Positions 36,618 to 37,265 of a stretch of DNA of 64,000 nucleotides are shown here, piece by piece. The position numbers and the translations under genes are program-made. Numbering within the stretch: the stretch's first letter is position 1; the number at the start of each line of letters is the position of its first letter. The notes under the pieces were generated by a model that saw nothing but the letters and a program-made list of their open reading frames with translations, did no database searches and was not told the origin of the DNA. Location of the stretch: the NCBI GenBank assembly GCA_964016885.1, contig OZ024743.1, positions 146,072,001 through 146,136,000 of the forward strand, written 5' to 3'. The DNA comes from Eledone cirrhosa. Taxonomy: Eukaryota.

Positions 36618-36736
36618 TAACGAAGGAAGTGTGGTAAGGAACCAGATGGACCATAACGCACCAGAGTACTCAATACTTAGGGTAGTAGATTGGGTAATAG
36701 GAAAATGTTCAAGATCCCGACGGCAGAGCTCAAGCC
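36618..36736 (-). mobile_element. Truncated H2 copy fused to the H4 element
   Basis: TAACGAAGGAAGTGTGG...CGACGGCAGAGCTCAAGCC continues directly into the inverted H4 segment. Confidence 0.8.
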
Positions 36737-37265
36737 CTCTGGTGATGTCCAGCAGAAGCAAGGGGGACAATCGTCTATGTATTTCAGGCTTAACTGGCCT
36801 TCGTCAGGATGGTCCCTCCCCCTTGCTTCTGCTGGACATCACCAGAGAGCATTAGCCCCCCGGTGTTTGCTTAGCTACAGCTTCCTAAAACCGTATTTCC
36901 TTGGAGATACGAAATATTTATACATATTGTATAAAGCTATGCTTGAAGCGAAATCCCATTTCGTTTTTATTATAAGTTGAGCCAACTTATGCAGCTTCAT
37001 ATGCAAATGAGATTGATCACCTCATTTACACAGACGAGAAATGTATATATTCTCGTCTGTCTTCTAGTCCAGCAGTCTCAAGCGGCGGTGGGAGGGACCG
37101 TCCTGACGAAGGCCAGTTAAGCCTGAAATGCATAGACGGTTGTCCCCCTTGCTTCTGCTGGATATCACCAGAGGGCGCTAGCGCTCCCCCCCTCCCCGGT
37201 GTTTGCATAGCTACAGCTTCCTAAAACCGTATTTCCTTGGAGATACAAAATATTTATACATATAT
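36734..37265 (+). mobile_element. Retrozyme-like small element (family H4), ~330-nt monomer in partial tandem with 5' inversion
   Basis: Direct repeats 36821-36927 and 37147-37265, an inverted copy at 36734-36820, several internal hairpins, and an end in (TA)n. Confidence 0.75.
37097..37140 (+). ncRNA. Canonical minimal type I hammerhead ribozyme (mutated mirror 36770-36813 on -)
   Basis: ACCGTC-CTGACGA-AGGC cagttaa GCCT-GAAA-TGCA-TA-GACGGT: all stems perfect, palindromic ATGCAT stem III. Confidence 0.9.

Follow-up and report, generated by a model that had tools for sequence, protein, structure and literature searches.

A non-coding repeat unit with a hammerhead ribozyme (HHR) lies at positions 36,620-37,263 of the window, the 64,000-nt stretch of the Eledone cirrhosa genome analysed here. 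This copy is read as a two-armed insertion of a non-LTR retrozyme, likely reverse-transcribed into (TA)n by an enzyme of a Penelope-like element (PLE) and probably from an RNA circle, a reading to which we assign a probability of roughly 0.6. That the insertion was PLE-driven and involved both target strands is highly probable on the genomic evidence. The family records in its DNA the PLE step proposed for such elements: each arm begins at one of two mapped start sites, the ribozyme site is read through, and some copies are fused to PLE 3' ends.

Structure of the insertion and its ribozyme

The insertion consists of two arms from one event, the inverted piece being the second arm. Its left boundary is at 36620 and not at 36734, where the preliminary description had it start. 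Unit positions are given on a circular ruler, with c1 directly after the ribozyme cut. The features are as follows.

36563..36619, no strand: (TA)n flanking the insertion on the left, either target or tail (TRF)
36620..36736, minus strand: 'long' 3' end of the terminal repeat of a Hydra-type PLE, bounding the left arm on its outer side (92% to window 40019-40133)
36734..36820, minus strand: left arm, inverted unit piece with damaged HHR, core 36807-36801 (83/87 identical to 37090-37176)
36817..37142, plus strand: right arm, first pass, covering the non-coding unit once in full (326 nt, 44% GC; direct repeat)
36892..36935, plus strand: a pair of hairpins, with the 'short' end site (ruler c119) in the loop of the second at about 36925-36927 (fold; 71 ends at c119)
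36947..36976, plus strand: hairpin and U-rich stretch with the 'long' end site, ruler c155-166 (82 ends at c166)
36972..37060, plus strand: three body hairpins (fold)
37097..37140, plus strand: canonical type I HHR, predicted cut 37134/37135 (core/stem match; stem pairs swapped between subfamilies)
37143..37263, plus strand: second, partial pass ('terminal redundancy'), stopping at the short site (direct repeat)
37264..38616, no strand: (TA)n at the right outer end (TRF)

The arms meet head-to-head at 36817-36820, and the right arm in full (36817-37263) comprises 1.4 units with a short end. The 'long' end site, whose exact base is blurred by TA tails, was read through in the 36817..37142 pass. 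The first hairpin of 36892..36935 is retained in the old subfamily described below. On the left, 36620-36736 represents the 3'-most 117 nt of the Hydra-type terminal repeat, joined to the inverted unit piece in the same sense, without a gap and via GGC microhomology; other copies of this terminal repeat have an upstream ORF with reverse transcriptase (RT) motifs and a CxCx5C linker. Three contig runs contain the repeat, and none of their contigs spans the junctions of this copy.

The type I HHR at 37097-37140 (+) is composed of stem I (37097-37102/37135-37140), the core CUGACGA (37103-37109), stem II (37110-13/37121-24), GAAA (37125-28) and AUA (37132-34), with the cut site predicted at 37134/37135. 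Helix I has 6 bp, helix II 4 bp and helix III 1 bp with a palindromic UGCA. An intact HHR is thus present where a textbook minimal hammerhead had been reported; the label 'minimal' does not hold, since by the definitions of PMC4209133 it is a 'canonical' metazoan type I HHR and not the 'minimal' PLE type. Where helix III has 1 bp and its loop is palindromic, a canonical HHR requires a second copy for cleavage, which permits the cutting of multimers but not of monomeric circles, as described in PMC4209133. The HHR would therefore act as a dimer, and cofolding predicts an inter-copy AUGCAU helix. No hammerhead family of Rfam was matched at gathering score or among the 27 matches up to E 5.

Most structural claims of the preliminary description were borne out. 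The terminal redundancy and the period of about 330 nt correspond to a direct repeat (36817-36935 vs 37143-37270, 85% identity) with a period of 326, then 336 after a 10-nt insertion in the C-tract. All four hairpins of the hairpin-rich body were located (36972/36983, 37005/37021, 37030/37050 and 37173/37181), the last being this copy's variant of a hairpin found family-wide. Likewise, there is no convincing ORF (the longest ATG ORF in the tripled unit has 50 codons), and the inverted 5' copy of the HHR was recovered at 36820-36734. Changes affect both stem I and the helix III palindrome of this inverted copy, which is therefore probably dead. The insertion thus has a single forward HHR and is not an 'active retrozyme' by the two-ribozyme rule (Li et al. 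2026).

The GC content of the unit is 43.9%. It folds far more stably than shuffled sequences, with z = -6.7 in the linear form; in the circular form the MFE is -105.2 kcal/mol (z -7.0, 60 shuffles). The unit is thus predicted to form a stable self-paired circle.

A dispersed family with two fixed 3' ends

A search of the genome for further copies, as suggested in the preliminary description, revealed a dispersed family, some of whose copies are tandem. The exact 36-nt ribozyme core gave 395 matches in the 3.0-Gb genome against 0 for the reversed control, and so its presence is not due to chance; 722 matches were obtained with a 25-nt 3' motif and 1775 with a relaxed core pattern, each with 0 in the control. 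The family unit is 323 nt long, and the median identity of segments to the family majority is 95% (about 5% divergence). By a strict rule the HHR is intact in 113/246 complete passes; two intact HHRs are found in 4/292 arms of the family.

An older sister family has a 340-nt period and 2007 search candidates. A comparison of the young and old subfamilies shows swapped base pairs at three of the four stem II positions and at one stem I position, with the loop sequences unchanged. In a covariation alignment of 15 rows (4 young, 11 old), in which essentially one subfamily split is counted, 91% of the cells pair and 9 pairs carry two-sided changes; the score was equalled in 0/500 shuffles. By this alignment the ribozyme fold is kept through compensatory changes across the 323-nt and 340-nt families, and weaker profile matches suggest further, more distant units. 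The 340-nt sister family and fainter relatives were seen at L158-L182, L136:1089-1265, L027:21-181, L094:1182-1384 and L268.

One single-strand array of about ten units (L133:6631-9901, L134:1-2935) has units that are 84-95% alike and internal duplications (units 3/8, 95%; units 5/10, 92%). It was the only array among 40 scored of 2973 candidates in a search with a 2.7-unit copy. The array was ruled out as master or source of the dispersed copies by its private allele, which occurs in just 2/261 dispersed passes; the common allele is absent from the array. At L098:1310-2756 a head-to-head pair is present twice in tandem, either by local duplication or as an assembly artefact.

Insertion ends were compared in 173 insertions with 307 segments, duplicates removed, mostly from the first contig and chosen by motif or best score; two of 175 insertions, with less than 84% identity, were left out of the counts. 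At the 3' side, 255/307 segment ends are concentrated at two sites separated by 47 nt, in windows that make up 12% of the unit: 130 at the short site c119 (within c112-132) and 125 at the long site c166 (within c153-171). The 5' ends are scattered. Segments are arranged head-to-head in 114/173 insertions, mostly with 0-4 nt overlap, and tail-to-tail in 2. One short and one long end were combined in 70 of the 79 classifiable pairs (P 8e-13). TATATA was found within 20 nt beyond 243/298 outer short or long ends, target and added tail being counted together. Unusual 3' ends cluster at c36-48, four of them exactly at c37 (L001, L045, L053, L069, L073, L080, L085, L092, L115, L142, L187 and L205), and this cluster is a possible entry point for template switches.

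The same short/long rule was observed in autonomous PLEs of this genome, in 2/2 complete pairs of a young family with RT and GIY-YIG and in 12/14 classifiable pairs, among 17, of a Hydra-type family. PLE insertions have been described with an inverted partner, a tail at one end and (TA)n (PMC8557442), and two internal RT start sites were found in vitro (PMC11167929). As judged from the genomic copies, the end pattern of the unit insertions is the PLE pattern and matches the two RT start sites of PMC11167929. In the genome itself, the short/long rule would be a sign that a PLE dimer primes on two strands.

At 6/38 unusual outer 3' ends the unit is fused directly, in the same sense, to the 3' part of another PLE-type element. 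The partners are the Hydra-type repeat seen at 36620-36736 (two, the second in L221), another Hydra-type endonuclease (one), the young PLE or a relative (two) and an unassigned repeat (one). We read these fusions as template switches, with later deletions between neighbours as the alternative. They tie the unit to PLE retrotransposition without singling out one partner. The three PLE families compared have no terminal repeat homologous to the unit, and no partner PLE was recognised among them by homology or shared hairpins. A 9-mer shared with the unit and lying before one end of the young PLE, considered as a sign of partnership, was judged to be within chance.

The young PLE family has 28,690 candidates, many of them 100% identical, with 4.3-kb tandem and head-to-head copies and a hammerhead of its own. 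Its ORFs are intact (about 1278 aa), with Pfam matches to RVT_1 and GIY-YIG at sub-threshold level only; two other fragments had no Pfam match. A GIY-YIG fragment of this autonomous PLE lies in the window at 28631-28981 (+), and further loci are L153-L156. Copies of the Hydra-type terminal repeat are found at 38762-40133, 40594-40851, 60629-60820, 32717-32831 and 20552-20589; some copies of this repeat are arranged head-to-head, and 78 nt separate their short from their long ends.

Template of the arms and a proposed mechanism

The 3' motif was used to pick 102 arms; of the 83 that extend as far as the cut site, 82 pass it. The template was therefore not a cleaved linear monomer, a candidate ruled out by the single arm (1/83) that stops within -10..+15 of the cut. 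The right arm at 36817 starts 8 nt past a cut site; stops there are no commoner than in neighbouring bins. Arms longer than one unit number 110/255 and those longer than two units 8/255; the longest has 868 nt and the median is 270-309 nt. With such short arms, multiple rounds on a circle would rarely be required.

Alleles at non-CpG polymorphic sites agree between tandem passes in 143/162 and between opposite arms in 308/349 comparisons, against 64% at random, and rare variants are shared at 7.0% and 8.6% vs 1.0%. Rare variants also recur in successive passes of one arm, for example six in L021. Because passes and opposite arms agree above random and share rare variants, each insertion event, as read from its alleles, had one template; allele sharing can likewise come from a source multimer of homogeneous sequence or from subsequent gene conversion. 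No allele bias by pass position was detected across 138 columns (best P 0.006), and there was no A-to-G strand excess (178/20584 vs 200/21118) as a scar of RNA editing. The C-tract is long in 31/89 terminal passes vs 6/33 inner passes.

Arms of more than one unit, read-through of the cut site and shared alleles thus indicate an uncut multimer or a circle as template, in line with the earlier proposal of a greater-than-unit-length cDNA from a circular or multimeric RNA. A circular template would explain the arm data simply, and we lean towards it with moderate confidence.

The same element and PLE enzyme could instead have acted on an uncut linear multimer from a tandem source locus, with circles as a by-product or absent, which we consider rather unlikely. 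Autonomous PLEs, in this genome as in PMC11167929, pass their own HHR and use linear read-through RNA to form copies in tandem and head-to-head; in PMC11167929 uncut RNA is the dominant substrate and the HHR dispensable in vitro, and we count this against the circle. The scarcity of arms above two units and the existence of one tandem array fit a linear multimer too. However, the 59 single-orientation copies have no common 5' leader, rare variants repeat in successive passes of one arm, and the array, a single one among the 40 candidates scored, lacks the common allele.

The preliminary description had named extension of other copies into a long coding Penelope body as evidence against it. Such extension was not seen: in the 59 single-orientation insertions there is no shared 5' coding extension and no ORF with RT and GIY-YIG joined to the repeat, and 114/173 insertions turn into an inverted arm. 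It is quite improbable that the copies are 5'-truncated pLTR fragments of an unfound autonomous PLE, with a partial-tandem pLTR as the cause of the periodicity. Every end feature is a PLE feature, the PLE families compared are three, and two copies (L020 and L216) adjoin Hydra-type RT sequence at their 5' end; these neighbours, however, join at different unit positions. Moreover, another pass and not an ORF end lies upstream of each pass, up to 2.7 units (about ten in the array), the old 340-nt family is likewise periodic, and the HHR is canonical and not of the minimal PLE type. Spread of a satellite or foldback DNA by DNA-level recombination, with the hammerhead as passenger, has the least credit: an array with local duplications exists and copies sit in unstable (TA)n, but such recombination would not be expected to give 3' ends that are fixed and polar beside scattered 5' ends, nor the short/long rule or the ribozyme covariation.

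Under the preferred reading of an RNA circle copied by a PLE enzyme, a copy with at least two passes would be transcribed, and two hammerheads would pair via the palindrome AUGCAU and cut out monomers. A host ligase would close the monomer, and the ribozyme would stay quiet there because its helix III is a lone pair of 1 bp, as PMC7229834 suggests. From the ends, a PLE endonuclease/RT would open (TA)n and prime on each target strand, using the short AU-rich site for one and the long AU-rich site for the other. In the DNA, the two cDNAs are seen to run past the cut site, end at scattered positions and meet head-to-head with 0-4 nt of microhomology. RT may sometimes begin on PLE RNA and then switch to the unit, as in the left arm at 36620-36820.

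We propose, more tentatively, that a protein-free lineage of ribozyme RNA circles (the 323-nt, 340-nt and more distant units) evolved independently, without a parent pLTR. A dimeric PLE protein would start copying from the two strands of a (TA)n break, at two fixed sites of a single circle, and could swap between circle and PLE RNAs, and the palindromic helix III would be a switch that cuts multimers and spares the circle. An in vitro PLE assay could use the 323-nt unit as a defined substrate with predicted junctions, and the young autonomous PLE is a ready source of enzyme.

Relation to known elements and other sequences of the window

By its sequence features the 323-nt family belongs to the animal non-LTR retrozymes, apparently PLE-mobilised, and adds a family to a known class. 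Like those of coral, mussel, axolotl (Rtz_331) and newt (satellite 2) described in PMC7229834 and PMC7761336, it has a non-coding unit of 150-450 nt in tandem, GC below 50% and a canonical type I HHR; a self-paired circle is predicted here, and PLE helpers were proposed there. Axolotl HHR_Amex1 (PMC7229834) likewise has a single-pair helix III closed by a palindromic tetraloop. Unlike the retrozymes of these accounts, the copies are mostly dispersed and two-armed, with 0.2-2.7 units, instead of long arrays, and their ends map to two fixed PLE-type sites.

The insertions also resemble EN+ PLEs, including the Hydra clade and non-autonomous Chlamys/MRC1 (PMC8557442, PMC11167929, PMC4209133), in 5' truncation with an inverted partner arm (114/173), an optional tail at one end (70/79), (TA)n targets (243/298) and two RT start sites that follow a hammerhead by about 120-170 nt. 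Unlike these PLEs as described, the unit has no ORF and its HHR is canonical rather than minimal, and it has no 3' sequence in common with the three autonomous families compared. The tail is 47 nt in the unit, and about 60 and 78 nt in the genome's two autonomous PLE families.

Mobilisation of animal retrozymes from RNA circles by PLEs has been proposed in PMC7229834 and bioRxiv 10.64898/2026.07.22.740005 from co-occurrence and pLTR similarity, without direct evidence. The bioRxiv work, which argues from these two features in vertebrates and proposes local tandem growth, likewise concludes PLE dependence; in its terms the copy at 36620-37263 would be a 'monomer derivative'. The present argument rests instead on insertion anatomy, with no homologous pLTR in three families. 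Our literature search returned no paper on this 323-nt family or on insertion-end evidence; Repbase/Dfam or paper supplements may contain it. As the class is known, divergence is about 5% and the arms are short, the family extends rather than overturns the field.

Newt satellite 2 has an internal snRNA-type promoter (cited in PMC2220036). In the unit an octamer, ATGCAAAT, lies at 37001-37008 and is retained in 16/25 old copies. It was rejected as an snRNA-type promoter, the octamer being missing from 12 U1/U2 upstream regions of the genome, and the proximal element common to these 12 regions is not in register in the unit. The best promoter-profile match in the unit is an AT-rich hairpin, a score as high in 7/1000 shuffles, with no proximal element before it. 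An internal snRNA-type promoter is thus not supported by the sequence. By eye, the U1/U2 genes (L289-L312) have a distal CCUCCC-type box near -260, a proximal TCAGT near -57, a TATA-like element near -30 and no octamer, and one distant hammerhead family has the octamer and the following hairpin in common with the unit.

Seven more type I hammerheads were located in the window (7764-7712, 30228-30164, 30393-30457, 49696-49626, 49798-49868, 52270-52330 and 60417-60490), two of them noted as inverted pairs; at other loci the 30393-type lies 1.3-1.4 kb behind an AT-rich Hydra-type endonuclease. A hammerhead-like motif with a long stem II at 36287-36405 belongs to a repeat of 0.9-kb period (35500-35601 vs 36397-36514), another retrozyme or pLTR. 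LINE-type RT frames at 46661-48396 (+) and 10584-12202 (+) are unrelated to the 323-nt unit. Elsewhere (G000:C1:143348607-143796123), one hammerhead core recurs in seven identical copies at intervals of about 60 or 105 kb, which marks a large segmental tandem duplication.
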